From Micrococcales bacterium 72-143 (GTDB taxonomy: Bacteria; Actinomycetota; Actinomycetes; Actinomycetales; Microbacteriaceae), in NCBI GenBank assembly GCA_001898835.1, contig MKVM01000001.1, positions 625,615 through 689,614 on the forward strand: a stretch of DNA of 64,000 bases, read 5' to 3'. This document shows, piece by piece, positions 1 to 12,146 of the stretch. A program made the translations under genes and the position numbers. Numbering within the stretch: the first letter of the stretch is position 1; every line of letters starts with the position of its first letter. The notes under the pieces were generated by a model. It was given only the letters and a program-made list of their open reading frames with translations. It was not told the DNA's origin and ran no database searches.

Positions 1-526
1 TTCCGCTACCCTCCAAATCAACCGCAGCTGCCCAGCGGAAAAAGGGCTCCACTTCAGGAGACCGCGTATCTTCTACCCACGACGCAACGCCTAGAGCATA
101 GATGCCAACGTTCTCGGGGTTGACGACGTCATTGACCGTGAAGTCTGCGAAATACAACCAGTAGTCGTTCCCACTAGCAGATACCTTGTAGTAGGCGAGC
201 AAGAGTTCGGATTTCTTGCCATGCGAAGCCGCATCCTTAGAATTGACGGTGTTCTCTTGCCATGTTATTTCGCCGCTCGGGAAGAACGAGAGAACGTAGT
301 CCAGGCCTTCATCGATCGCCGTTGCACGATCCAGCGCGTAGGGCGAGAACATGCCTTTCAGCGCGGCAGCATCGTGGCTCTTCAACGCGTCGGCGATCTG
401 CACCATCCGGGCCTCCGCCTTTCCATAGTCATCGTCGCGGAGACCGACCCTCCCGGGCAGAAGAGCACACGACGAAAGAAGCGCGGCAGCACCGAGCAGA
501 ACCACCACGGAAAGCAACCTCCTCAT
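1..526 (-). CDS. Lipoprotein paralogous to the rhs-linked immunity candidate; 3' end lies beyond the window edge
   Basis: Hand translation from ATG 526-524: MRRLLSVVVLLGAAALLSSC(lipobox)ALLPGRVGLRDDDYGKAEARMVQIADALKSHDAAALKGMFSPYALDRATAIDEGLDYVLSFFPSGEITW... It stays open for 175 codons to position 1. About 50% identical by eye to domain 1 of the 1463..2485 product. Absent from the ORF track because no stop lies in the window. Confidence 0.75.
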   Translation of the reverse strand, partial: MRRLLSVVVLLGAAALLSSCALLPGRVGLRDDDYGKAEARMVQIADALKSHDAAALKGMFSPYALDRATAIDEGLDYVLSFFPSGEITWQENTVNSKDAASHGKKSELLLAYYKVSASGNDYWLYFADFTVNDVVNPENVGIYALGVASWVEDTRSPEVEPFFRWAAAVDLEGSG

Positions 527-789
527 CGGGTTCCCTTCTTCGTCTTCCTTCTGAATCGCAGCGTCGCTGTCCGCGTATCGGGGTAGAACTCCCAAACGCG
601 ATCGTGACTCGCAGCACTGTTGTAAAAAGCTTCGTACATACCGTCGTTGGGAAATGTGATCGTGTACTCGACGGAGAGATCGGCCGCGGCCGGGTTCTGA
701 ACTCTTGAGGCCCAGTGTGCTTGGTGGAATCTGTGTCCGTTGCCAGGTCTCGAGGAGTTCTTCGAGGCTCGCTTCCACTCCGCATCCCC
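523..789 (-). pseudogene. Orphan rhs C-terminal fragment (core stub plus toxin tail, no start codon)
   Basis: One frame is open from the TAG at 792-790 to the TGA at 525-523: GDAEWKRASKNSSRPGNGHRFHQAHWASRVQNPAAADLSVEYTITFPNDGMYEAFYNSAASHDRVWEFYPDTRTATLRFRRKTKKGTR*. The last 59 aa align with the Rhs C-terminus (VQDPALNDIHATFTVDFSGDTGMFEAFQNEW...TATLRYRRKKKVRR*). There is no ATG/GTG/TTG ahead of the homologous part. The stop overlaps the next ATG (ATGA). Confidence 0.7.
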
Positions 790-1462
790 CTACTCGGGAA
801 GGAACACACCGGGCGGGGTCGTAGCCGCCACATCGAACGAGTCGAGCCACGCGAACAACGCCCGCTCCTGGGGCGAGTCGCCCGCCTCCGTGCGCGGCGC
901 GGCACCCACCGCGTAGATGCCTTCGATGCTGGGATCGGCCTCGTCTATCGGGAAATAGGCAAACGCCACCCAGAAATCCTTCCCGCCCGAACTGACCGGA
1001 TAGCTCGACAGCATCAGCACCGTCTGAACGCTATCGTCGCCCTCCGTCTTGCGAATGGTCGGGTCGTTCTGCAACTTGTCCCAGGCGACCTCCCCATCCG
1101 GGATATAGGCGAGGAGCGCAGCTACCCGGTCTCTGAGCCCCGCCCCAAGGGTGTCGAGCACGTAAGCGGAGAACCTCTCCTGTAACCCGAGGTTATCCCC
1201 GGAGTCCAGTTCCTCAACAATCCCGGTCATCAGGAAAGTCCAAGCAGGGTCGACACCAGCCGGGCTTTGATAGAACGCTGCATACATCCGATCGTTCGGG
1301 AACCTGATCGAATCTTCGGCTGAGAGGGTGTCGGCGGATGGGTTCTGCGCTCTGGAAGACCATGCTCCCACCCATGCTTGCCGCGCCTTTGGGCGGGATG
1401 AAGCGCCTCGGGTATTGGGCCGCTTCTTGAAGCGCCCCGACAACCTTCCCCTCGGCATCCCA
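790..1462 (-). pseudogene. Chimeric orphan cassette: rhs core stub, toxin-tail remnant, and an immunity domain-2 paralog fused in frame
   Basis: 1445..1462 (WDAEGK) is identical to rhs 3760..3777 but lies in a different frame from the rest. AQNPSADTLSAEDSIRFPNDRMYAAFYQS (1264..1350, frame of track ORF 790..1578) matches the toxin tail. From PAGVDPAWTFLMTGIVEELD to TTPPGVFLPE* it parallels domain 2 of the 1463..2485 protein. There is no signal peptide. The N-terminal 70 aa of the track ORF are Arg/Ser/Pro junk overlapping the upstream gene. Confidence 0.65.
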
Positions 1463-1897
1463 CTACTCGGGAAGGAAGATACCCGGCGGGGTCGTGCCCG
1501 CGACGTCGAACGAGTCGAGCCAGGCGAACAACGCCTGTTCCTGGGGCGAGCCACCCGCCGCGGTACGCGGCGCGGCACCGACCGCGTAGATGCCCTCCAG
1601 GCTCGGATCGGCCTCGTTCACCGGGAAGTAGGCAAACGACACCCAGAAATCCTTCCCGCCCGAACTCACGGGGTACGTCGACAGCATCAACACCGCTTGA
1701 CCGCCACCCTCGCTCGTCGCCTGGCGAATCACCGGGCCGTCCGACAACGCTTCCCAGGCGACCTCACCGTCGGGGAACATCCCCAGGAGCGCATCGATCC
1801 CGCCCTTCAGCCCCGCCGCGGCTCTCGCCCGATCACCGAACCTCGCCTCGAACCCGACATCATCCCCGGAGTCCAGCTCCTCTACGATGCCTTCCAT
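790..1897 (-). repeat. Direct repeat: immunity domain-2 coding segment present twice (790..1230 and 1463..1897)
   Basis: Both copies begin ctactcgggaaggaa... on the plus strand. 53/60 nt are identical in the first 60 nt by my count. Similarity stays high for about 200-250 nt and then decays. Protein C-terminal halves are ~85-90% identical and N-terminal parts ~45%, judged by eye. Confidence 0.8.
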
Positions 1898-2485
1898 CAC
1901 CCAGGTCGATATCCGCGGATCGACGTAGTCGGGAACGTAGACGCCTGGGTAGGCCATCTCGAATTTCTCATCCACGCTCATCGCGCCCGCCCATGAGAAG
2001 AACAACTGCGCGGGGCCAACATCGAGGGTGTCCGTATACGGCGACACCCCCATCGCGTAGATTCCCGCGCGGTCGGCACTACCACCTTCATTCACCGTGA
2101 CGTCGGCGAAGAACATCGTGAACTGTCTCCCGCCTGCTTTCACAATGTAGTACGCCTGCAGCATGTCGGTCCTCGTCCCAAACGAGCGCTGCCCCTCAGA
2201 CCCGATGGTACGCAGTTTCCAGGTGACGCCGCCATCAGGGAAGAACGACAGAAGATATTCCAGGCCAGCATCGATATCGGCTGCTTTCCCCAACGCATAG
2301 GGCGAGAACATCCCCTTCAACGCGGCGACGTCCCGATCGTTCAGGGCCGCCCCGATCTGCTCCATTCGGGCGTTTGCCTTCTGATGGTCGTTATCGAAGA
2401 TAAGTCCCCTTCCCGGGATGAGCCCGCACGATGAAAGGAGCATGGCGCAGGCTAGTGCTAGTACCCCGAATCGCAGTCGTCTCAT
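1463..2485 (-). CDS. Two-domain lipoprotein, candidate Rhs immunity protein
   Basis: In track ORF 1463..2569, the internal ATG at 2485 overlaps the rhs stop (ATGA). MRRLRFGVLALACAMLLSSC gives a signal peptide plus lipobox. Two tandem homologous ~145-aa domains follow. The immunity role is inferred from position only. Confidence 0.85.
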   Translation of the reverse strand: MRRLRFGVLALACAMLLSSCGLIPGRGLIFDNDHQKANARMEQIGAALNDRDVAALKGMFSPYALGKAADIDAGLEYLLSFFPDGGVTWKLRTIGSEGQRSFGTRTDMLQAYYIVKAGGRQFTMFFADVTVNEGGSADRAGIYAMGVSPYTDTLDVGPAQLFFSWAGAMSVDEKFEMAYPGVYVPDYVDPRISTWVMEGIVEELDSGDDVGFEARFGDRARAAAGLKGGIDALLGMFPDGEVAWEALSDGPVIRQATSEGGGQAVLMLSTYPVSSGGKDFWVSFAYFPVNEADPSLEGIYAVGAAPRTAAGGSPQEQALFAWLDSFDVAGTTPPGIFLPE

Positions 2486-5400
2486 CGTCGGACCTTCTTC
2501 TTTCGCCTGTAGCGCAGAGTCGCGGTGTGGTTCTTCGTGTCGAAATTCCAATAACTGCTGTCGTGCCATTCATTCTGGAACGCTTCGAACATTCCGGTGT
2601 CTCCGGAGAAGTCGACGGTGAATGTGGCGTGGATGTCGTTCAAGGCCGGGTCTTGGACGGCAGGGACAAATGTCGTGCACCACCATTGTTTCTCGGCGGG
2701 GGAATAGGACCCGATCGTGGCCCCGCGATAGTCGAGGGTCATCGACATCGGCAGAGCGACATCCGGATCCGCTTGCCAGAAGAACCCCTTCTCGGACAAC
2801 GGATTGTCTTGCGAGTAGAGCCCCAGCTCAGCTCCCGTGCCCAGGTTCAGGTAGTCGCCCTTCCAAGCCCACAAGACGTAGCTCTTGTCGTTGTACTCGA
2901 ATTCGAACTTGTGGGGCTCCATCGAGGTCCCGAGGTCGAAGGCAACGTCGTATGTGTCGTTGTAGCCGACGTACTGCTGCCACCCGTACTTGTTCGAGTG
3001 GTAGGCGCCATCTGCGGCGCGATCGAACCCCCAGAAGTTGAACCATCCCACTCCGTCACCCGGGTGCTGAGTGAATTGGACGTATGGCGGATTTTGGACG
3101 ACCAGTTGCACAATGCCCCGGATCAGGGTCTTGAACGGGTCGAATTGCGCCTTGGGCGGTGGCTGCGGTCCGCTCTTGCCCTTGCCGAGCCCCTTGCTGC
3201 TGCCGTCATACCCGTCCAGTGGCTTCTGCCCTGAGGGATCGGAGCAGGTCACCGGGTTGTTCCACCCGTACTGGTATGCGTTCAGCTGCGCCGGAATGGC
3301 GGGATCCAGCACAGGATCAACACTCAGGAACACCCCGCTCGCGGGCTCGTAGTAGCGGGCCCCCAGCAACGACAGCGACGTGCTCTCATCACGGGTGAGA
3401 CCGAGGAAGCCCTTGTCACCCGGAACACCCGCATCCGACCCGTCACGCGCCCCGCCGAACGGGTCCGTGCGCACCACCCGGGCACTCCCGACACCCCAGT
3501 CCGTGTTCGGCACCGCCGCGACCACCGAACCCTGATGATCCACGACCAGAGAAGCAACCCCGCCCAAGCCGCGCGAGGTCCGCACCGCCACCAACTGCCC
3601 GCTGAACGTGTAGTACCGGGTCGCCGACACCACCCCCGCAGACGAGATCACCAACTCCTGCCCACCCGGGAGATACACCGTCGTGCCCGAAGCATCCGCC
3701 CGCACCGTCCGCCCACCCGACACGTCATACACGTACTCCGCACCATCGACGCCGACAAGCTTCCCCTCGGCATCCCACTGGTAGTCGGTAGTCGCCCCGC
3801 CCGTCGTCGACGAGGCGCGGTTGCCGGCGTCGTCGTAGGCGAAGCTCGTCGCCGTCGAAGATCCGCCCGTCGTCTTCACCGAGGACGCGAGCTGGTGCGG
3901 CCCGAAGCCGCTGCCGCCGTGCGTATAGGAAGTGGTGGTGTCGGATCCGCCGCCGACGGCGTGCTCGAGCATCTGGGTGCGGTTGCCGAGCGCGTCGTAC
4001 GCGTACTCAGTCCAGTACGGACTCGTCCCGCCGACATCGGCGGTCGTGAGCGCGGACTGCGCGACCCCGCAGTTCCCCACCGTCGACGACCACGCCACCG
4101 TCAGCCGGCTCAGGCCGTCATACCCGAAGCACTGGTTGTCCTGACCTGTGGCGAGCGGACTCGCCTGGTCGAAGATGCTCGTGACGTTGCCGGCCTGGTC
4201 GTACCCGTAGTTCAGAGACAATCCCAGACCGTGGTTCTGACGGGTGAGCGAGATGTTCGCCAACCGTTCAGTGCCGGTCTCGTACTGGAAGGTCACGTAG
4301 GCGCCGTAGGTGTTGCCCAGGTCGAGGCCGCTGACACGCCCGTCGGCACCCACCCGGCTCTCGGCGACGTAGGTTCCCCAGCCGAAACCGCCGCCCATCC
4401 ACGAAGGAACCGACGCCGCGTCGAATCGGGTCGTGACGGCCTCCGCGCCGAGCGCCTTCGTGCCCGAGTGCGAAACGATCGCGGGCAGCATGACGGAAGC
4501 GAGCTGGCCGTCAGCGGTGTAGCTGTACTTCGTCGTGAACGACAAAGCGGCGAGGGCGTCGGCGTACTCGGGGAGGTTCGGCAGGGTGAGGGTTGTCGCC
4601 AGTGTCCGGTAGGCCGCGTCGTAGCGATCGACCGAGGTCGTATACGCCGCGCCATCGACGAAGCGAGTGGTGGACGACAGCTGGCCCAGCACCGGGTCGT
4701 CGTTCTCATCCAGCGACTGGTCATACTGCCACTGCGCCCGGATGGTGCCATTCACGGTGTCATCACGCAGCGTGGTGGTGCGACCGAGGACGTCGTAGGT
4801 GTAGGCGAGCGTGTCGCCGTTGCCGTTGGTGCGGGTGACCACCCGGTCTGCTTCGTCGTAGCTGGTGGTGGTCGTGCCGCCGTCCGGGTCGTCGGATGCG
4901 ACGAGGCGCCCGCCCCAGTCGTAGTCGTAGGTCCAGATGTGGTTGGCCGAGTCCCGCATCTTGACCAGGCGACCGGCGACGTCGTACTCGTAGTTCGTGG
5001 CCTGGTGGGGAAGCGCGAGCACCTCGACCGGGGTGTCGGCTGCGGCGTCGAGGTCGGGATCGCGAAGGTACTCGGTCCGCGCCACAACCCGGCCGAGCGC
5101 GTCGACCGTCGAGCCCTGCGGAGCCTTCCCGAGCGGCGGGATGACGAGCGTGGTGTCGCCGTCGTAGGCGGTGACCGTGCGCCACCGCTCGTTCGCGGGG
5201 TTGGAGTCCGTGCCCACCCAGAAGATCTCGGCGACGACCCTGCCCGCGGCGTCATAGTCATAGGTGGTCAGCGACGGCGGCACCGGGATCGGAACGATCG
5301 GGGTTGCGGTCGGCGCACCCTCTGCCCACCAGCGGCCGGCCTGACGCGCGACGCGGCCCGCCGAATCGTAGTAGGTGTGCGTCACCATGCGCCCACGGTC

Positions 5401-8400
5401 CGCGGCCGATGCATCGTGGCCGGCGCCGGCGTCACGGCCCGACGTTTGGGTCTGGAACACTCGCAACAGCCCGTCGTAGAGCGTGACGCTCACCAGTTGG
5501 CTGGACCCGTTCGCGGCGAGTGTCCTGGTGACCACCGAGTTGAGACCGTTCGGGTCGACGCGGTATTCGTACGCGACCGATGGCAGCGGAGTGCTCTGGT
5601 GCTGCGGGCGCCGCACGGTCAGCAGGCGGCCCAGCGCGTCGTAGCTTCCGGAGGTGACCAGACCGTTCGTATCGACGGTGGAGGTCACGAGACCTGTGAG
5701 CGGGTTCAGGTGGGTCACGGTCTGGAACCCCGACAGCGGACCCCACCCGTCCGGGTCGGGGCCGGTCGTGGTCACGGTCTGCGTGAGTCCGCCGGCGGCT
5801 TCCTGGTAGGCAGTCGTCGTGACGTTGCCGAACGGGTCCGATACCTCCAGCGGCCGACCACGGTCGTCGTAGGACAGCACACGGCTGACCAGGATGCTCC
5901 CCACCCCGTCCGCCGGGTCGAGGCGGTCGGTGCGCTCTACCCTGCCGAAGTCGTCATAGCTGGAGGTCGTGTCCGAGATCAGGTCTCCGGGGAGCGCGGG
6001 GCTGGTCCCGCATGCCACCGAGATCACCTGGGTCTCGGAGACCAGCGCGACCAGGTGCTTGGCGGCCAGCGTGCCATTGCTCGCCGCCGCGTAGGTCATC
6101 GTTGTGCAGGTATTGTCCGCGGAGGTCGTCAGGTCGCCGCGATCATCGACCGAGGAGACCTGGGAGTTCGCGTCGAAGCTGCGGGTCTGCCTGGTGTGGT
6201 GGGTCAGGGCTCCGGCCGCGTCGTAGCCGAACCCGTCGGTGGTCTGCGAGGGCAGGCGGGTCGATTTCACCCCCGCCGCGCTCGTGCCCGTCACGACGGG
6301 CACGCCGAAGGTGGTGACCGTGTCGGACACGGGGGTCACGCCGTTCAGCGTCGTGCTGACGAATACCTGGCCTTGGTACTCCTCCCGGTCGAGGGCCGAC
6401 ACGGTGGACCCGCTCGGGCCCGCGGTCAACGTGCCGCCAGTACCGCGGTAGTAGGTGGACCGCATGCTCGTGGCGTCGGCGCCGATGCCGATCGTGGTCG
6501 TGACCGTCTTCACGCCCCGGAAGTCCGAGTAGGTCACCTCGTCGGGCTTCACCATCGCGCCCGTGGGCTTGGCCCATGCCGCCCCGTCGCCGTAGCCGAA
6601 GGCGGTCACCTTCGCGACGGAACCCGTGATGAGCTCCTCCGACTCCTCCGCGACGGGCGCGGCACCGGATTCCACGATCGACTGGACGACCCACTTGTGG
6701 AAGTACTCGGTCAACGCGCTGCTCGTGCCGCCCGGGTACCACTTCACGGGGAAGCAGAGACGGGCGTTGGCGGCCTGGGCGGGTTCGGAGATGCCGGGGA
6801 CGTCACCGGGACCGCAGTCGGTCGCGTAGTTGACCGACACCTGGGCACCGGAGTCGGTGCGGATGCCGATCATCCTCGGTCGGAGGAGCGGCAGCACGAG
6901 CGCGTCGGTGGCGATCCGGTTCTCGAGGAAGTCGTACGTGAACAAGAACGGCGACCCCGTGATGTCGTCGCTCGTGGAGGCGGTTCCGCCCTTGCCGGTG
7001 TGCGTGACGGAGCGCAGCACGAGTGTCACGTTGCTCGCGTATGCGAGATCGACACCGGCTCCTTCGCCCTCGAACGTCTGGCCGAACACCCAGGCGTCGA
7101 CCGGAGCATAGGCGGCGCCGTCGTACGCGAACGTCGAGACCGCGCGGAGACGGGTGAGATCGAAGAACACCGGCGTGTAGCTTCCGCACTCGCCGGGGAC
7201 GCTCGAGGTGCACACCAGATCGGTCGGCGTGTCCAGCCAGTGGTTCTCGGACGTGGAGCTCTGCCCGTTCGAGCAGAAGGAGTTCGGCGCGGTGAGGTTC
7301 GTGATGCAGCGGGGGCCGTAGTCGAACACGACCTTCGCGGGCGCGTTGGCCACGTTCTCGGAGCCGACCCGGGTCCCGTACTCGATGCGGTCGACATGCC
7401 CACCGGAGACGTATGCGACGCTCGCCCCCGCGGTATTGCCGGTGACGTCGTAGATGTAGCGGTTGGTCTCGGCGTCGTAGAAGTAGCTCATAGAGTTGCC
7501 GGACACGTCCACGACGTAGTCGAGGTTCCACCGCCACACCTGCGTGCACGCCGAGTCGCTGAACGTCGCGTGGTAGCACGGCTCCCCGGGGTGGTTGCCG
7601 TAGACCGGCACCGTCCAGGCCGAGTTCAGAGCCGGGCCGTTGGCCGAGGTCTTCCCGCGGCCGAAGTAGTACCGGGTGCCGTCGGAGGTCGTCAGCTTCC
7701 AGTATTCATCGGCCTGCCCGGCGTTCCACGACGAGCCGGTGACCCGTTCGATGACGGAGCCGTCCTCGTTCTTGGGATGCCATTGCCCGGTGGGGGCATC
7801 GCGCACGAGTTCCACGGCGGTGCCGTTGAGCATCAACGTGGCGTTCTCGGCGCCCCAGCACAGGTCCCCGGTCACCCGGCCGATGTTGTTCGCCGCGCCC
7901 TCCTCGTCGCGAGAGCAGGGGGTGTAGCTTCGCTCCACATAGCCTTCGGTGAGGGCGAACCCCTCCCCGATCGTCCCGGACTGGTTGTTCGTGGAGGGCG
8001 TGCGACCGTCGATGCTTCCGGACGAGTAGGAGATCGTCAGTTCCGGCGCAGGACCCGCGGGCGCTGTCGGGACGCCGATCGGCAGCGACCAGGTGAAGGC
8101 GCCCGTAGAGCCCGCCGAGCCCCAGGTCGAGGATTGGGACAGGCTCGTGGCACCCCAATCGCCCTCCGAACCCGACGAATCCGCGGTGACGGCCAGCGAC
8201 CCTCCGCCGCCGGAACCCGAAGCCAGACGGCCCGGCGCCTGGCTCGTGCGCAGGGACGCGGGCCGCGCCCCGTCCGCGCTCGGCGCCACCGGCACGACCG
8301 CCGTCACCGTCTGCGTGGCGGGATCGTTCACGGTGTCCAGCGGCAGCGGGGTGCACGGCCCGCCGCCCGCGCACTCGGGAATCCAGACGAACCGGAGCCT

Positions 8401-8988
8401 CGACGCCCAATCGCCCGACACCAGACCCGCGAACGTGGCGTACGAGAGAGTCAGCTCGACCCCGGAGTCCGGCACCGGATCCGCGGAGGCATCGGTGACG
8501 TCCAGCAGAACCCCGGTGATGCCCGCGGCGTCGGTCTCCTCGTCGCCGGCGACCCGGAGCAACACAGCCGCCGGCGTGGCGGCCGCCCCGTCCGGGGCGA
8601 CCGTGACCTCCATCCCGCCCAGGTCGACCGTAACCGGATCGGGGGTCGGGGTCCCGGTGCTCGACTGCCCGGCACCGAGTGAGGCAGGGCGCGCCCCCTC
8701 CTCGGTCAGAACGACCAGCTGCTCATCCTCGTCGGGAAGCGAGGCCCCGATTTCCGGGATCGCACCGGCCGCGCCCGGCGCCGCCCAGGAGCCCGTGAGC
8801 GGAACCGCGGCCGCCGCCTCTGTCGAGCCGAGCGCCGCAATCGCGTCGCTGAATCCCTCGGCCCGCGTCTGAAGGCCGGAGGCGCTCGCCGCGACGGCGG
8901 CGGGATCGATGGTGAGGGTCAGCGTGAGCGCGGCGGCGGTGAGGGCGGCGGTGCCGGCGCGGAGTCGGATGCGGAGGTTCCGGTTCAT
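2482..8988 (-). CDS. Rhs/YD-repeat polymorphic toxin, 2168 aa, with Sec-type signal peptide and C-terminal cargo domain
   Basis: Many YD repeats are present (YEYDVAGRL, TYDYDWGGRL, YTYDVLGR, YDALGRLLTV, YAYDALGNRT, FAYDDAGNR). The core end reads GARYYEPASGVFLSVDP...NAYQYGWNNPVTCSDPSGQ. Start is set at MNRNLRIRLRAGTAALTAAALTLTLTIDPAAVAASA (aa 141 of the track ORF), where ATG 8988-8986 overlaps the upstream stop (ATGA). Confidence 0.95.
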   Translation of the reverse strand: MNRNLRIRLRAGTAALTAAALTLTLTIDPAAVAASASGLQTRAEGFSDAIAALGSTEAAAAVPLTGSWAAPGAAGAIPEIGASLPDEDEQLVVLTEEGARPASLGAGQSSTGTPTPDPVTVDLGGMEVTVAPDGAAATPAAVLLRVAGDEETDAAGITGVLLDVTDASADPVPDSGVELTLSYATFAGLVSGDWASRLRFVWIPECAGGGPCTPLPLDTVNDPATQTVTAVVPVAPSADGARPASLRTSQAPGRLASGSGGGGSLAVTADSSGSEGDWGATSLSQSSTWGSAGSTGAFTWSLPIGVPTAPAGPAPELTISYSSGSIDGRTPSTNNQSGTIGEGFALTEGYVERSYTPCSRDEEGAANNIGRVTGDLCWGAENATLMLNGTAVELVRDAPTGQWHPKNEDGSVIERVTGSSWNAGQADEYWKLTTSDGTRYYFGRGKTSANGPALNSAWTVPVYGNHPGEPCYHATFSDSACTQVWRWNLDYVVDVSGNSMSYFYDAETNRYIYDVTGNTAGASVAYVSGGHVDRIEYGTRVGSENVANAPAKVVFDYGPRCITNLTAPNSFCSNGQSSTSENHWLDTPTDLVCTSSVPGECGSYTPVFFDLTRLRAVSTFAYDGAAYAPVDAWVFGQTFEGEGAGVDLAYASNVTLVLRSVTHTGKGGTASTSDDITGSPFLFTYDFLENRIATDALVLPLLRPRMIGIRTDSGAQVSVNYATDCGPGDVPGISEPAQAANARLCFPVKWYPGGTSSALTEYFHKWVVQSIVESGAAPVAEESEELITGSVAKVTAFGYGDGAAWAKPTGAMVKPDEVTYSDFRGVKTVTTTIGIGADATSMRSTYYRGTGGTLTAGPSGSTVSALDREEYQGQVFVSTTLNGVTPVSDTVTTFGVPVVTGTSAAGVKSTRLPSQTTDGFGYDAAGALTHHTRQTRSFDANSQVSSVDDRGDLTTSADNTCTTMTYAAASNGTLAAKHLVALVSETQVISVACGTSPALPGDLISDTTSSYDDFGRVERTDRLDPADGVGSILVSRVLSYDDRGRPLEVSDPFGNVTTTAYQEAAGGLTQTVTTTGPDPDGWGPLSGFQTVTHLNPLTGLVTSTVDTNGLVTSGSYDALGRLLTVRRPQHQSTPLPSVAYEYRVDPNGLNSVVTRTLAANGSSQLVSVTLYDGLLRVFQTQTSGRDAGAGHDASAADRGRMVTHTYYDSAGRVARQAGRWWAEGAPTATPIVPIPVPPSLTTYDYDAAGRVVAEIFWVGTDSNPANERWRTVTAYDGDTTLVIPPLGKAPQGSTVDALGRVVARTEYLRDPDLDAAADTPVEVLALPHQATNYEYDVAGRLVKMRDSANHIWTYDYDWGGRLVASDDPDGGTTTTSYDEADRVVTRTNGNGDTLAYTYDVLGRTTTLRDDTVNGTIRAQWQYDQSLDENDDPVLGQLSSTTRFVDGAAYTTSVDRYDAAYRTLATTLTLPNLPEYADALAALSFTTKYSYTADGQLASVMLPAIVSHSGTKALGAEAVTTRFDAASVPSWMGGGFGWGTYVAESRVGADGRVSGLDLGNTYGAYVTFQYETGTERLANISLTRQNHGLGLSLNYGYDQAGNVTSIFDQASPLATGQDNQCFGYDGLSRLTVAWSSTVGNCGVAQSALTTADVGGTSPYWTEYAYDALGNRTQMLEHAVGGGSDTTTSYTHGGSGFGPHQLASSVKTTGGSSTATSFAYDDAGNRASSTTGGATTDYQWDAEGKLVGVDGAEYVYDVSGGRTVRADASGTTVYLPGGQELVISSAGVVSATRYYTFSGQLVAVRTSRGLGGVASLVVDHQGSVVAAVPNTDWGVGSARVVRTDPFGGARDGSDAGVPGDKGFLGLTRDESTSLSLLGARYYEPASGVFLSVDPVLDPAIPAQLNAYQYGWNNPVTCSDPSGQKPLDGYDGSSKGLGKGKSGPQPPPKAQFDPFKTLIRGIVQLVVQNPPYVQFTQHPGDGVGWFNFWGFDRAADGAYHSNKYGWQQYVGYNDTYDVAFDLGTSMEPHKFEFEYNDKSYVLWAWKGDYLNLGTGAELGLYSQDNPLSEKGFFWQADPDVALPMSMTLDYRGATIGSYSPAEKQWWCTTFVPAVQDPALNDIHATFTVDFSGDTGMFEAFQNEWHDSSYWNFDTKNHTATLRYRRKKKVRR

Positions 8989-11960
8989 TGCCCGGCTCCT
9001 GACGTCGGGTCGAGGGCGAGGTTGCCTTGTGCGAAGTCGGTGGCTTCGGCACCCTGGCACAGGCGGCGGATCTTGGACTCGGCGACGACGGAGCCGGAGA
9101 ACACGCGCACGTTGTCGATCGAGCCCGCCCAGAATCCGTTGCCGCTGCCGCCCTGCAGCGCGCGACCGACGGTGAACGCTCCGGACGCGGGCCACGGGGT
9201 GGCGGTACGTGCAGCTTGGGTGCGCACCGGCTCCCCGACAGCGGGATCCTCCGGTGTGCCGATCTCGCACACCCAGAGCCGCATCGTGTGGGCGGTCGCG
9301 TCGTGTTCGCCGACCAGGTGCACCCATTCGCCTGTGGTCACGGGGAGTGCCGAGGTGACCATGGTGTTCGGGCCGGACGGCGCGTCGGGCATCGCGAAGC
9401 TCCAGCATCCGCCGGTCATTGCGGGGCAGCTGGCCGTGTAGCCGAGGCGGAAGCCGGACTGCGTCACACCATCTTGGGCGAGGGCCGTCGCATCCGCGCC
9501 GAGGGCTGCCGGGTCCAGCAGCACGTGGGCGGAGATCGTGAACGACTTCGTGGTGTCCACGACGGGGCCGGAGGTCTGAGCCCAGTCGTTCACGCCGTCC
9601 AATACGAGCGCGTGGTCACCGCCGCGGGAGTCGAACAGGCTGTGCGGGCCCTCCCCCCAGGAGGCGCCGTTGACCGTCAGCGGTCTCGCCGGGTTGCCGG
9701 CGCCATCGGCTGCCGTCGTACCGGTGCCCTCGTCGAACATCCAGATGCCGTCCTCGGTCGCCGTCGCGACCGTGAACAGGTAGCTGGTGGGGGACGACAC
9801 GTTGCCTGCGGCGTCCTTGGTGGTGACGGTGAGGGTGACCGGGCCCGACACGGACGGCGTGTAGGAGATCGTCGCCGTCCCTGCGGTCGCGCTGACCGTG
9901 GTCGGGTTCGCGCTGTTGTTGAAGCCATAGGCGAAGGAGACGGCGTCGCTCGCGGTGCCGGCGGAGAGCACGAAACCTCCCTGCTGCCCGACGCCACCGC
10001 GTTCCTTGCCCTGCTCGTAGCGCGCGGCGCCGACGTCGCTTGCGGCCACGGTCGGGGGTGGCGGTGCCGTGACGTCGACCACGAACTCGCACCATCCCGA
10101 CCATGCCCCGTACAGCGACCCGTCCCAGCTGCGGGCGCGCCACGCGTACGCGGTCCCATCGCTCAGCGTGGCTCCGACCAATGCTGTCGCGGTCGCGCCG
10201 CTCGCGACCGCGGGAAGGCCGGTGCCGCTGCTCCACACCGGTGCGGTGAGGCTGGACACCGGCGCCACCTCGAACGAAGGCGTGACGTTCGTGCCGTCCG
10301 GGTCGGACACCACCGCCTGAAGGGTCGGCTTCGCGGATGCGATCGCGGGCCGGGATGCGCCGGTCACGCAGCCCGCGATGCTCGGCACCGCGAGCCGCAG
10401 GCTCGTCGGAGCGGCGGGAGGCCGGTTGTAGGTGGCCTGCACGGTCGCGTCGTGACGGAATCGCTTCCATCCGTTCATGTTCGACTCGTCGACGAGGAGC
10501 GCCACATACAGGTTGGATTGGTCGGCATCCGCCATCCACTTGAAGCCCGCGGTCGCATCGAACGACTTCCATCCGTCGGTGCCGCAGCTCGCCTTGCTCG
10601 ACTCGGTGCGCGACCCCAGCGCCTGCTGTGCCGAAATACCCGACCACGTCGTCCCGCTCGAGAACGCCGCCACCCGATACAAGGTCGTCGTCTGCGCGGT
10701 GCAGTTGTAGGAATGCACCCCGTTGACCACGAACTGGGCGCTCACGATGTCCGCGCCCGCCATCGCGGCGATCTGCGTCAACCCGCTGAACTGCCACGCC
10801 AGCCGTTGCTTGAACGAGGTGTTGCACGACGCCACCTGGTTGCAGTTGCCCGTGCCCTGCCCCGGCATCGACGCGGAGATGTCTCCCCAGTTCACCAGAG
10901 TGTTCGAATACCCGCCCGTGCGGACCGCTATCCGCAGCGCCGGACCCCACCCGCTGAAACTCGGGTCCAGATACACCGGCCACACCGTCCCCGGATCCTC
11001 CAGCATCCCTGCATCCGGCGAAACGATGAGCGCATCCCCGTCGACACGCAGGCCCATCTGCGCCACCCGGTCCCCATCGACCGGCGCGCGGGTGCGGTCA
11101 CCCGCGCCCACCTCCGTGACCGTCTGCGGCAACGACACCGACGCCCCGGCCGAGTCCCACATCATCGGCAGCGCCACCGCGAACTGCGGCTCCCCCTGCG
11201 CATCCACGACACGCACCGCACCGTCGGCATCCGCCTCGAGACGCAAACCGGTCGACAGACGCGTCGCGAACTCCAGATCGAGCCCGGACTCGCCGCTCGC
11301 CGCGCCCACCGCAGCCAATCGTTCCGCAAGGCGCTCCGCTGCGCCCGCATCGGCGAGCTCGACCACCGGGAGAAACCCCGTGCCGTCCGCATCCACCGAC
11401 ACCAGCAAACGGATGCCGTCGCCCAGGTCGTAGCTCAGCTGCGAACCGGCCACGGCGGGCTCGGGCAACTCCAGCGGGAAGCCGACGCCCAGGCTGTGGC
11501 CGTCCTTCTCGATGGTGCCCAGCGGCTGCTCCCGCCCGGCCGCACCGCCCGCATTCAACGTCATCGGGAACGCCGACGCCGCGACCCGCAGCACGCCCGA
11601 CGAGCGATCGGCGACCAGAGAGGTGTCAGGCGCCACCCACGCTCCTCCGACCTCGACTCGCGCCGGCACGGCCGACAGCTGCAACCGCGCCGTCCCATCC
11701 GCCGCCGCCCACGACGTACGCCACGGCGTGCGCTCCGACAGCACCTCCACGTCCACGCCACAGGCTCGGGCGATCGGTGACGCGGCCTCGAACGACGCCG
11801 CCTCCGCCACCGAGCAATCCACCCCGCCACGGCCCACGCCCGTGAGCTGCACCACGGCGACCGCTCCCCCGGACACCACCAGGGCCAGCGCGACGAACAC
11901 CGCGACCATTCGGCGCAAACGTGACGCGAGCAATCCTCGCATCCGCGCGCTCACAGGCAT
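8985..11960 (-). CDS. Membrane-anchored large beta-rich protein with C-terminal LamG/concanavalin-like domain
   Basis: N-terminal RLRRMVAVFVALALVVSGGAVAVVQL is a TM anchor. The C-terminus FTISAHVLLDP...GEWVHLVGEHDATAHTMRLWV...GSIDNVRVFSG is typical of the LamG jelly roll. The start is uncertain (ATG 11960 or 11942; the track ORF starts at 12077). The stop overlaps the rhs ATG. Confidence 0.85.
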   Translation of the reverse strand: MPVSARMRGLLASRLRRMVAVFVALALVVSGGAVAVVQLTGVGRGGVDCSVAEAASFEAASPIARACGVDVEVLSERTPWRTSWAAADGTARLQLSAVPARVEVGGAWVAPDTSLVADRSSGVLRVAASAFPMTLNAGGAAGREQPLGTIEKDGHSLGVGFPLELPEPAVAGSQLSYDLGDGIRLLVSVDADGTGFLPVVELADAGAAERLAERLAAVGAASGESGLDLEFATRLSTGLRLEADADGAVRVVDAQGEPQFAVALPMMWDSAGASVSLPQTVTEVGAGDRTRAPVDGDRVAQMGLRVDGDALIVSPDAGMLEDPGTVWPVYLDPSFSGWGPALRIAVRTGGYSNTLVNWGDISASMPGQGTGNCNQVASCNTSFKQRLAWQFSGLTQIAAMAGADIVSAQFVVNGVHSYNCTAQTTTLYRVAAFSSGTTWSGISAQQALGSRTESSKASCGTDGWKSFDATAGFKWMADADQSNLYVALLVDESNMNGWKRFRHDATVQATYNRPPAAPTSLRLAVPSIAGCVTGASRPAIASAKPTLQAVVSDPDGTNVTPSFEVAPVSSLTAPVWSSGTGLPAVASGATATALVGATLSDGTAYAWRARSWDGSLYGAWSGWCEFVVDVTAPPPPTVAASDVGAARYEQGKERGGVGQQGGFVLSAGTASDAVSFAYGFNNSANPTTVSATAGTATISYTPSVSGPVTLTVTTKDAAGNVSSPTSYLFTVATATEDGIWMFDEGTGTTAADGAGNPARPLTVNGASWGEGPHSLFDSRGGDHALVLDGVNDWAQTSGPVVDTTKSFTISAHVLLDPAALGADATALAQDGVTQSGFRLGYTASCPAMTGGCWSFAMPDAPSGPNTMVTSALPVTTGEWVHLVGEHDATAHTMRLWVCEIGTPEDPAVGEPVRTQAARTATPWPASGAFTVGRALQGGSGNGFWAGSIDNVRVFSGSVVAESKIRRLCQGAEATDFAQGNLALDPTSGAGQ

Positions 11961-12146
11961 CCCCACACGGGCTCCCCCCACCAGCGACACCAAGCTGAGT
12001 ATGAATCCGCGCCGCACGCTACACGCCCGCGAGGCGCCAGCACAAGACATTGGTGAACCTTTCTCGCGCGCCCGCAAAAGACCGCCCCGCGGCTCGCTCC
12101 GCGATCACCTCGCCCCACCCGAAGGCCGGAGGCTAGCGTTGACCCG

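Follow-up and report, generated by a model that had tools for sequence, protein, structure and literature searches.

What role does a lipoprotein gene play when its start codon overlaps the stop codon of a Rhs toxin gene? This question is raised by a 64,000-nt stretch of the genome of Micrococcales bacterium 72-143 (contig MKVM01000001.1, positions 625,615 to 689,614), here called the window and used as the reference for all coordinates. On its minus strand lies the gene for a Rhs/YD-repeat polymorphic toxin of 2168 aa, counted from MNRNLRIRL (2482..8988), whose tip belongs to a Pfam domain of unknown function (DUF), DUF4474. It is followed by a gene of 340 codons plus a stop codon (1463..2485) for a lipoprotein of a second such family, DUF5104. 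With a probability of roughly 0.78, we hold that this downstream gene encodes the cognate immunity protein of the DUF4474 domain in the Rhs protein. The original prediction, which had put the lipoprotein forward as an exported immunity candidate, is supported by the adjacency of the two families across genomes, by the conservation of the lipobox in homologues and by orphan cassettes of toxin tails and immunity genes within the window.

Surveying the adjacency of DUF4474- and DUF5104-like genes across genomes had been suggested in the original prediction. One genome per species (GTDB representatives) was scanned with a DUF4474 alignment, the best 80 loci (L014-L093) were taken, and downstream genes were identified by comparing a hidden Markov model (HMM) of actinobacterial DUF5104 modules with the six-frame open reading frames (ORFs) of these loci. 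Nearly all 80 loci stemmed from Bacillota, and the few others belonged to Fibrobacter, Treponema, other Spirochaetales, Endomicrobium and one myxobacterium; Actinobacteria were absent from this set, as was the window's own genome. A DUF5104 ORF lay directly downstream and on the same strand in 72 of the 78 loci that could be assessed given the length of their downstream sequence, corresponding to about 70 species (73 if a truncated copy at L051 is counted), and began at -136 to +339 nt relative to where the toxin match ends. This linkage rules out chance adjacency of the two domains. Among the 88 downstream DUF5104 ORFs, 65 carried a strict lipobox pattern, most commonly LSSC, and most of the others visibly have a lipobox behind a non-ATG start. 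Many of the loci harbored two to four DUF5104 genes in tandem, each after a toxin fragment (L023, L028, L035). In Ruminiclostridium josui (L008), orphan DUF4474 and DUF5104 genes follow an IS110 element, downstream of a Rhs gene with a different tip.

DUF4474 resides on full-length Rhs proteins of 1600-2250 aa, on ~400-aa proteins with a Sec-type signal and on proteins with other N-terminal modules, and we regard this occurrence on several carriers as the mark of a polymorphic toxin domain. When 1.84 billion representative proteins were searched with a profile, 476 DUF4474 clusters (50% identity) scored E<1e-30; the best 150 matches listed were all clearly DUF4474, and none of them formed a bridge to a known family. 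Inspecting individual carriers revealed some further arrangements. An Oscillospiraceae DUF4474 protein (L066:615-1391) has a lipoprotein-type signal of its own (...LLVGSIFLTSC), with no DUF5104 gene downstream. At L009/L010, which lie outside the adjacency survey, a 1564-aa Rhs protein is followed by a 334-aa DUF4474 protein and a 565-aa 'Phospholipase-like' protein, with no called DUF5104 gene. A DUF4474 protein with a hydrophobic, signal-like N-terminus was also found in the anaerobic gut fungus Piromyces sp. E2 (P0058, 258 aa), which suggests transfer of a bacterial toxin domain to a eukaryote that may secrete it.

At the junction in the window, the minus strand of the rhs 3' end reads ...AAG GTC CGA CGA TGA, with the stop codon at 2484-2482. 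The ATG of the lipoprotein gene (2485..2483) has three bases in common with this stop codon (2484..2482), forming an ATGA overlap at 2482..2485, and a purine-rich stretch (GAAGAAGG), which encodes the basic toxin tail RRKKK, is located 7-14 nt 5' of the ATG. The 340-aa product starts with MRRLRFGVLALACAMLLSSCGL, in which a basic n-region (three arginines) precedes 12 hydrophobic core residues and a lipobox, L-S-S-C (LLSSC), with the cysteine at position 20 (MRRLR-FGVLALACAMLL-SS-C20). It thereby displays a lipoprotein signal, defined as a basic n-region, a hydrophobic h-region and a lipobox of the form [LVI][ASTVI][GAS]C ~15-35 residues from the start. Signal peptide and lipobox (MRRLRFGVLALACAMLLSS followed by Cys20, the codon of which is 2426-2428) together span 2426..2485 on the minus strand. 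The ATGA overlap and the lipobox-bearing signal peptide had both been part of the original prediction and are borne out by direct reading of the sequence.

The public protein identical to the window's product (P0001, from a Micrococcales metagenome-assembled genome) is annotated with only 300 aa, from Met41 (MEQIGAALN), and lacks the signal peptide (window 2366-2485); three further homologues (P0007, P0010, P0014) are likewise called from an internal methionine. Of 40 actinobacterial homologues, 36 have an N-terminal lipobox (such as LLSSC, LLASC or LVSSC) on manual reading; the strict pattern flagged 32. For the short call P0007, a GTG-start signal peptide (...LLAVVALATTAVLASC) is present in frame directly upstream. 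Because signal peptide and lipobox are conserved among homologues, and because of this GTG-start signal, we take the ATG at 2485 to be the real start and the product to be a predicted lipoprotein. Current genome annotation begins this gene 40 codons late and so hides the lipoprotein signal.

Within Actinobacteria, independent loci (L002-L004) encode a SpvB-Rhs protein with a DUF4474 tip (E 7e-39), a two-module lipoprotein and then a second lipoprotein. At L006/L007 and L096, the C-terminal half of a DUF4474 gene precedes two or three DUF5104 genes. At L001 and L005, the lipoprotein genes seemingly stand alone, yet immediately upstream 15-20 codons remain from the 3' end of a DUF4474 gene. Translated in the toxin frame, these vestiges end in ...WTFNTNNTATLSFRRKRRGRR (L005) and ...GFDDRSGTAALSYRRRRRERAQ plus a stop codon (L001), the window counterpart being ...WNFDTKNHTATLRYRRKKKVRR plus a stop codon. 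Across ~290,000 six-frame residues, the motif A[TA]L.[FY]RR[KR][KR] occurred once per locus and only at the toxin 3' end, and an ATGA overlap is again present at L001. A similar but weaker toxin scar is discernible by eye at L095. We read the lipoprotein genes of L001 and L005 as orphaned immunity genes. The original prediction had named occurrence of the lipoprotein family independently of the cargo as an argument against immunity: stand-alone genes do exist, but both of these keep a vestige of the DUF4474 3' end. The Rhs-borne DUF4474 copies of Actinobacteria (the window, L002-L004) resemble a small branch that was possibly acquired by transfer.

The window itself contains two further toxin remnants with DUF5104 genes downstream of the lipoprotein gene, all on the minus strand. 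In orphan 1, a degenerate DUF4474 tail (RQAWVGAWSSRAQNPSADTLSAEDSIRFPNDRMYAAF; 1273..1401; toxin-HMM E 3.6e-8; BLASTP 30% identity to the cargo, E 0.009) is fused in frame to an inter-module linker and a lone DUF5104 module of the C type described below (790..1263), which is 65% identical to the second module of the lipoprotein; signal peptide and first module are missing. This arrangement looks like a deletion chimera and is probably a non-functional deletion product. In orphan 2, a DUF4474 3' end (...VQNPAAADLSVEYTITFPNDGMYEAFYNS...TATLRFRRKTKKGTR plus a stop codon; 523..714) is 47% identical to cargo residues 178-232 (toxin-HMM E 1.7e-11; BLASTP E 3e-10), and another ATGA overlap joins its stop codon to the start codon of a single-module type-A DUF5104 lipoprotein (MRRLLSVVVLLGAAALLSSC...; 1..526) that runs past the window start. 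As far as it lies inside the window, this lipoprotein agrees in sequence with P0035, a 188-aa protein of Micrococcales bacterium 72-143. In our interpretation, the orphan cassettes arose when recombination displaced former toxin tips together with their immunity genes, which gives the window the classic layout of a rhs locus with displaced tips and immunity genes. Downstream, same-strand linkage across lineages, tandem paralogue arrays and orphan toxin-tip/immunity cassettes, all of them features of polymorphic immunity genes, are the reasons why we favor an immunity function.

With respect to the toxin, the Rhs protein comprises, in order, a signal-like N-terminus, a SpvB domain (Pfam E 3e-7), RHS repeats (RHS_repeat, E 8e-25), a Rhs-associated core and the DUF4474 tip (E 8e-15). 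The core (TIGR03696, E 2e-13), the sole addition from an NCBIfam scan, terminates in ...SDPSGQ. RHS repeats, a core with a DPxG-type end and a variable C-terminal domain are the features that identify Rhs/YD polymorphic toxins. The C-terminal cargo begins after the core motif ...NPVTCSDPSGQ (2485..3225, minus strand), with the DUF4474 Pfam match at about 2539-3006. In the last 305 residues, which contain the core followed by the tip, PF14751 scored 60 bits (E 3e-16; cut-off 23). The lipoprotein matched DUF5104 (PF17117) in two stretches, with 52.6 bits against a cut-off of 27 (E 7e-14), and 40 of 40 homologues carry PF17117. Both family names had been offered in the original prediction, and both hold above the Pfam gathering thresholds.

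In the cargo, D81, K110, D112, E121 and several tryptophan, tyrosine and glycine residues are among the invariant positions, His64 is nearly so, and a motif WAWKGDYLNLGxGAELG (WAWKGDY plus NLGxGAELG) is conserved. AlphaFold2 modeled the cargo from 39 sequences as a globular alpha+beta domain (predicted local distance difference test, pLDDT, 85.7; predicted template modeling score, pTM, 0.82). Foldseek retrieved no significant neighbor of this model in the PDB (best E 0.06, TM<0.2) or BFVD, and the cargo has no Pfam, NCBIfam or PDB sequence match beyond DUF4474. The invariant Asp/Lys/Asp/Glu set and the near-invariant histidine suggest an enzyme rather than a pore-former. A glycine-zipper pore, which the LGxGAELG segment might evoke, was rejected, as this segment contains an invariant glutamate, forms a predicted beta-strand in a confident globular model and includes no hydrophobic helix.

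In Actinobacteria, DUF4474 tips terminate in basic residues, RR[KR][KR][KR].. (window 2497-2523 and 526-560; L001, L002, L005, L006, L096), a tail absent from the Bacillota sequences in our alignment A2. The codons of this tail (AAGAAGAAGG) form a purine-rich stretch ahead of the overlapping immunity start codon. Upstream of rhs and on the same strand, a gene for a 1030-aa protein with Big_13 and Laminin_G_3 domains (8988..12077, stop codon 8985-8987; Laminin_G_3 E 1.8e-12) has a stop codon overlapping the Rhs ATG (CAATGA), so that three genes are chained by ATGA overlaps. At L002, a 995-aa gene occupies the same position before the homologous Rhs gene. The 1030-aa Laminin_G/immunoglobulin (Ig) protein is probably a surface or adhesion accessory of the operon; adhesin, wall anchor and delivery partner are candidate roles.

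The lipoprotein is built from two ~150-aa modules, a duplication that the original prediction had noted with ~145 aa per copy: module 1 (residues ~37-186; 1928..2377) and module 2 (residues ~193-340; 1466..1909), both on the minus strand. BLASTP aligns them at 31% identity over 153 columns (E 5e-17), and a single module HMM matches both halves (E 1e-55 and 3e-52). Homologues of the protein have one, two or three modules (about 190, 340 and 490 aa). Clustering their modules yielded three actinobacterial types. Type A, to which module 1 belongs, includes the single-module proteins and most N-terminal modules; it is the type nearest to the single-module proteins of Bacillota, to whose modules it is about 30% identical. 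Type B takes the first two positions of three-module proteins and recurs in some two-module proteins. Type C, represented by module 2, is always C-terminal in actinobacterial two-module proteins and about 19% identical to Bacillota modules. The architectures observed are A, A-A, A-C, B-B, B-C and B-B-A; in the window, the lipoprotein represents A-C, orphan 1 C and orphan 2 A. Since the two modules are different subtypes that are shuffled among relatives, the A-C fusion is most likely a two-specificity, or poly-immunity, protein. Alternatively, one module may bind while the other only spaces or stabilizes.

An AlphaFold2 model of the lipoprotein from a 26-sequence alignment (pLDDT 90.1, pTM 0.82) places a disordered tether at residues 19-29 before two similar alpha+beta modules, each consisting of helices followed by four long strands. 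Foldseek assigned each module to the NTF2-like/cystatin-like group, with matches to 4r1k (probability 1.0, TMt 0.65) and 4qan as well as to ketosteroid isomerases, epoxide hydrolases and designed NTF2 proteins. Taking an alpha+beta cone with three N-terminal helices packed on a curved antiparallel sheet as the definition of the fold, DUF5104 modules are predicted to be NTF2-like. When the lipoprotein and a Bacillota DUF5104 protein were used as queries against PDB sequences, no solved sequence relative was found; the matches to these two queries and the cargo were at chance level only (a decarboxylase segment, Cry35 at E 0.44, uteroglobin fusions). A Pfam scan of the lipoprotein at E<=1 returned DUF5104 alone, with no match to the immunity families Imm-NTF2, Imm-NTF2-2 or DUF576, and the immunity protein TipC and DUF576 were absent among the best 50 Foldseek matches to its model. 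A full-text literature search on 4R1K retrieved only unrelated or structure-prediction benchmark papers.

How might such a pair operate? With the Laminin_G/Ig, Rhs and lipoprotein genes joined by overlapping stop and start codons, the immunity protein would be made whenever the toxin is made. The Rhs protein, given its signal-like N-terminus, would be exported and fold outside the membrane; no cytoplasmic-delivery module was detected in it. The lipoprotein would be exported too; a lipidated Cys20 and a flexible linker of ~10 residues would hold it on the outside of the cytoplasmic membrane, from where its NTF2-like modules could bind and block DUF4474 originating from the cell itself or its kin. 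From the location of the lipoprotein and the gene context, we infer that it neutralizes the toxin and that the toxin has an envelope target, most likely the membrane surface, lipid-linked wall precursors or the wall. We place the target there because most of the DUF5104 partners examined, from two phyla, are extracytoplasmic, because certain carriers are simply secreted proteins of the Sec type and because the fungal copy has a signal-like N-terminus.

Several observations weigh against this picture. Six of the 78 assessable loci, the one with the truncated DUF5104 copy among them, have no detectable full DUF5104 gene, and four of the other five are in diderms (one in Cystobacterineae, two in Fibrobacter and one in Endomicrobium). 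The reverse survey, upstream of DUF5104 genes, was small and covered only a handful of actinobacterial loci; a metagenome scan for it with alignment A3 returned just 5 loci. Orphan 1, having no signal peptide, cannot work as an exported protein. An envelope target is deduced only from where the partner protein resides, and interception at the surface by an immunity protein might in principle also stop a toxin with a cytoplasmic site of action.

This last point leads to the foremost rival explanation, which we consider unlikely: the immunity protein is real, but the toxin has a cytoplasmic target, and the surface modules capture the toxin before translocation, a form of surface exclusion. Characterized Rhs cargos of monoderms, such as the WapA tRNases, do act in the cytoplasm, and for a toxin without a recognizable fold or activity, the location of the immunity protein is the sole evidence for the site of action. 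Yet some DUF4474 proteins, of ~400 aa, possess merely a Sec-type signal and a short N-domain, the fungal copy has its signal-like N-terminus, and no recognizable translocation module is present. The producer's own toxin, folding outside the membrane, would moreover share a compartment with the lipoprotein, and exported immunity went along with extracytoplasmic action in the TelC/TipC and TslA/TilA pairs. We judge it less probable still that the DUF5104 lipoprotein is an accessory of the toxin—serving to tether it at the surface, to chaperone its folding or release, or to offer a docking site—rather than its antidote. An obligate helper would be expected to show the same strict adjacency and translational coupling, but diverged tandem paralogues and orphan toxin-tail cassettes are hallmarks of immunity genes, not of helpers, and lipoprotein genes persist where the toxin has decayed to a vestige of 15-20 codons, when a helper would be useless. 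That translation begins at Met41 to yield the usual cytoplasmic immunity protein, leaving the apparent signal peptide untranslated, as the start of P0001 and the three other internal calls would have it, is very improbable in view of the lipobox conservation among actinobacterial homologues and most Bacillota partners, the signal peptide upstream of P0007 and the recurrence of the ATGA overlap at orphan 2 and L001.

A full-text literature search found no paper on DUF4474, DUF5104, PF14751, PF17117 or EUBSIR_01394. The linkage described here assigns a role to two domains of unknown function at once. We read DUF4474/DUF5104 as a new toxin/immunity family of an already known kind, namely a polymorphic toxin with an exported immunity protein. 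The immunity assignment is well supported for both domains and conceptually unsurprising; an envelope target is likely. An externally tethered immunity protein marks DUF4474 as one of few protein toxins that likely act on the Gram-positive envelope from outside, and toxins of this sort point to accessible, essential targets. Because no structural neighbor was retrieved, DUF4474 may have a new activity. The multi-module lipoproteins and orphan cassettes furnish a natural example of immunity repertoires built by fusion and recombination.

Only tentatively, and with more doubt than confidence, we sketch a wider scenario. DUF4474 would be a widespread antibacterial toxin with a fold absent from PDB and BFVD and an undescribed activity, killing monoderms from outside via a conserved component of the envelope, and DUF5104 NTF2-like lipoproteins would be its dedicated surface antidotes. 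The toxin domain would have spread from Bacillota to Actinobacteria and even to an anaerobic fungus that apparently secretes it, with A-C and three-module lipoproteins serving as single-chain poly-immunity proteins.

How does this pair compare with known systems? The window resembles the Rhs and WapA orphan cassettes of Escherichia coli, Salmonella and Bacillus subtilis, where displaced C-terminal tips, all accompanied by an immunity gene of their own, come after a main rhs gene. There, by contrast, immunity is conferred by small proteins of the cytoplasm, and nucleases make up most of the cargos. Immunity proteins against envelope-targeting effectors of the type VI secretion system (Tsi1/Tsi3 and the Tli families) are periplasmic, often lipoproteins, and encoded beside the effector gene. 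They share with the DUF5104 lipoprotein the placement of immunity in the compartment of toxin action, but belong to diderms, counter contractile injection and come from unrelated protein families. The monoderm surface lipoproteins NisI and SpaI guard against lantibiotics acting at the membrane or lipid II, and NisI is an internal duplication of a SpaI-like domain. NisI is thus a duplicated-domain lipoprotein, like the two-module protein here derived from a single-module ancestor; the differences are that NisI and SpaI neutralize small peptides instead of a ~230-aa protein domain and that the folds are unrelated.

Polymorphic toxin systems offer closer parallels. According to Zhang et al. 2012 (PMC3482391), Imm-NTF2 and Imm-NTF2-2 are immunity proteins with an NTF2 fold that pair with Tox-NucA or Tox-JAB-2; Imm65, a lipobox-anchored protein accompanying a RHS-borne toxin in Bacteroidetes, is named as the only lipoprotein immunity protein of that 2012 collection; and fused multi-immunity proteins are described. 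DUF4474 and DUF5104 were not found in the passages of this source that were searched. On this comparison, Imm-NTF2 and DUF5104 are alike in fold and role only, and their partner toxins differ.

In Streptococcus intermedius, the LXG lipid II phosphatase TelC is countered by the membrane-anchored immunity protein TipC, an alpha+beta protein of three helices and a curved sheet whose concave face binds the toxin (PMC6193138, PMC5555719). Much as proposed for DUF4474/DUF5104, TelC works in the inner wall zone, its immunity partner has its domain on the outer face of the membrane, and immunity paralogues are present in the operon; TipC differs in being anchored by a transmembrane helix and not by lipid, and toxin family and secretion route differ as well. 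In Staphylococcus aureus, the TslA-TilA pair of type VII secretion (T7SS) combines a phospholipase toxin with a DUF576 immunity lipoprotein (PMC10730906). Here, too, a monoderm antibacterial toxin is matched by an extracellular immunity lipoprotein, and variable tandem arrays of immunity paralogues adjoin the toxin. The two systems diverge in the carrier (a T7SS reverse-LXG protein as opposed to Sec/Rhs), in the immunity family (DUF576, not DUF5104), in the toxin (TslA is a known lipase, whereas DUF4474 has no assigned activity) and in gene order, with tilA upstream of its toxin gene and the immunity gene in the window downstream and ATGA-coupled. The analogy of TilA and TipC to the DUF5104 lipoprotein is functional only, and with a lipoprotein in the one case and a membrane-anchored protein in the other, exported immunity in Gram-positive bacteria has its precedents.

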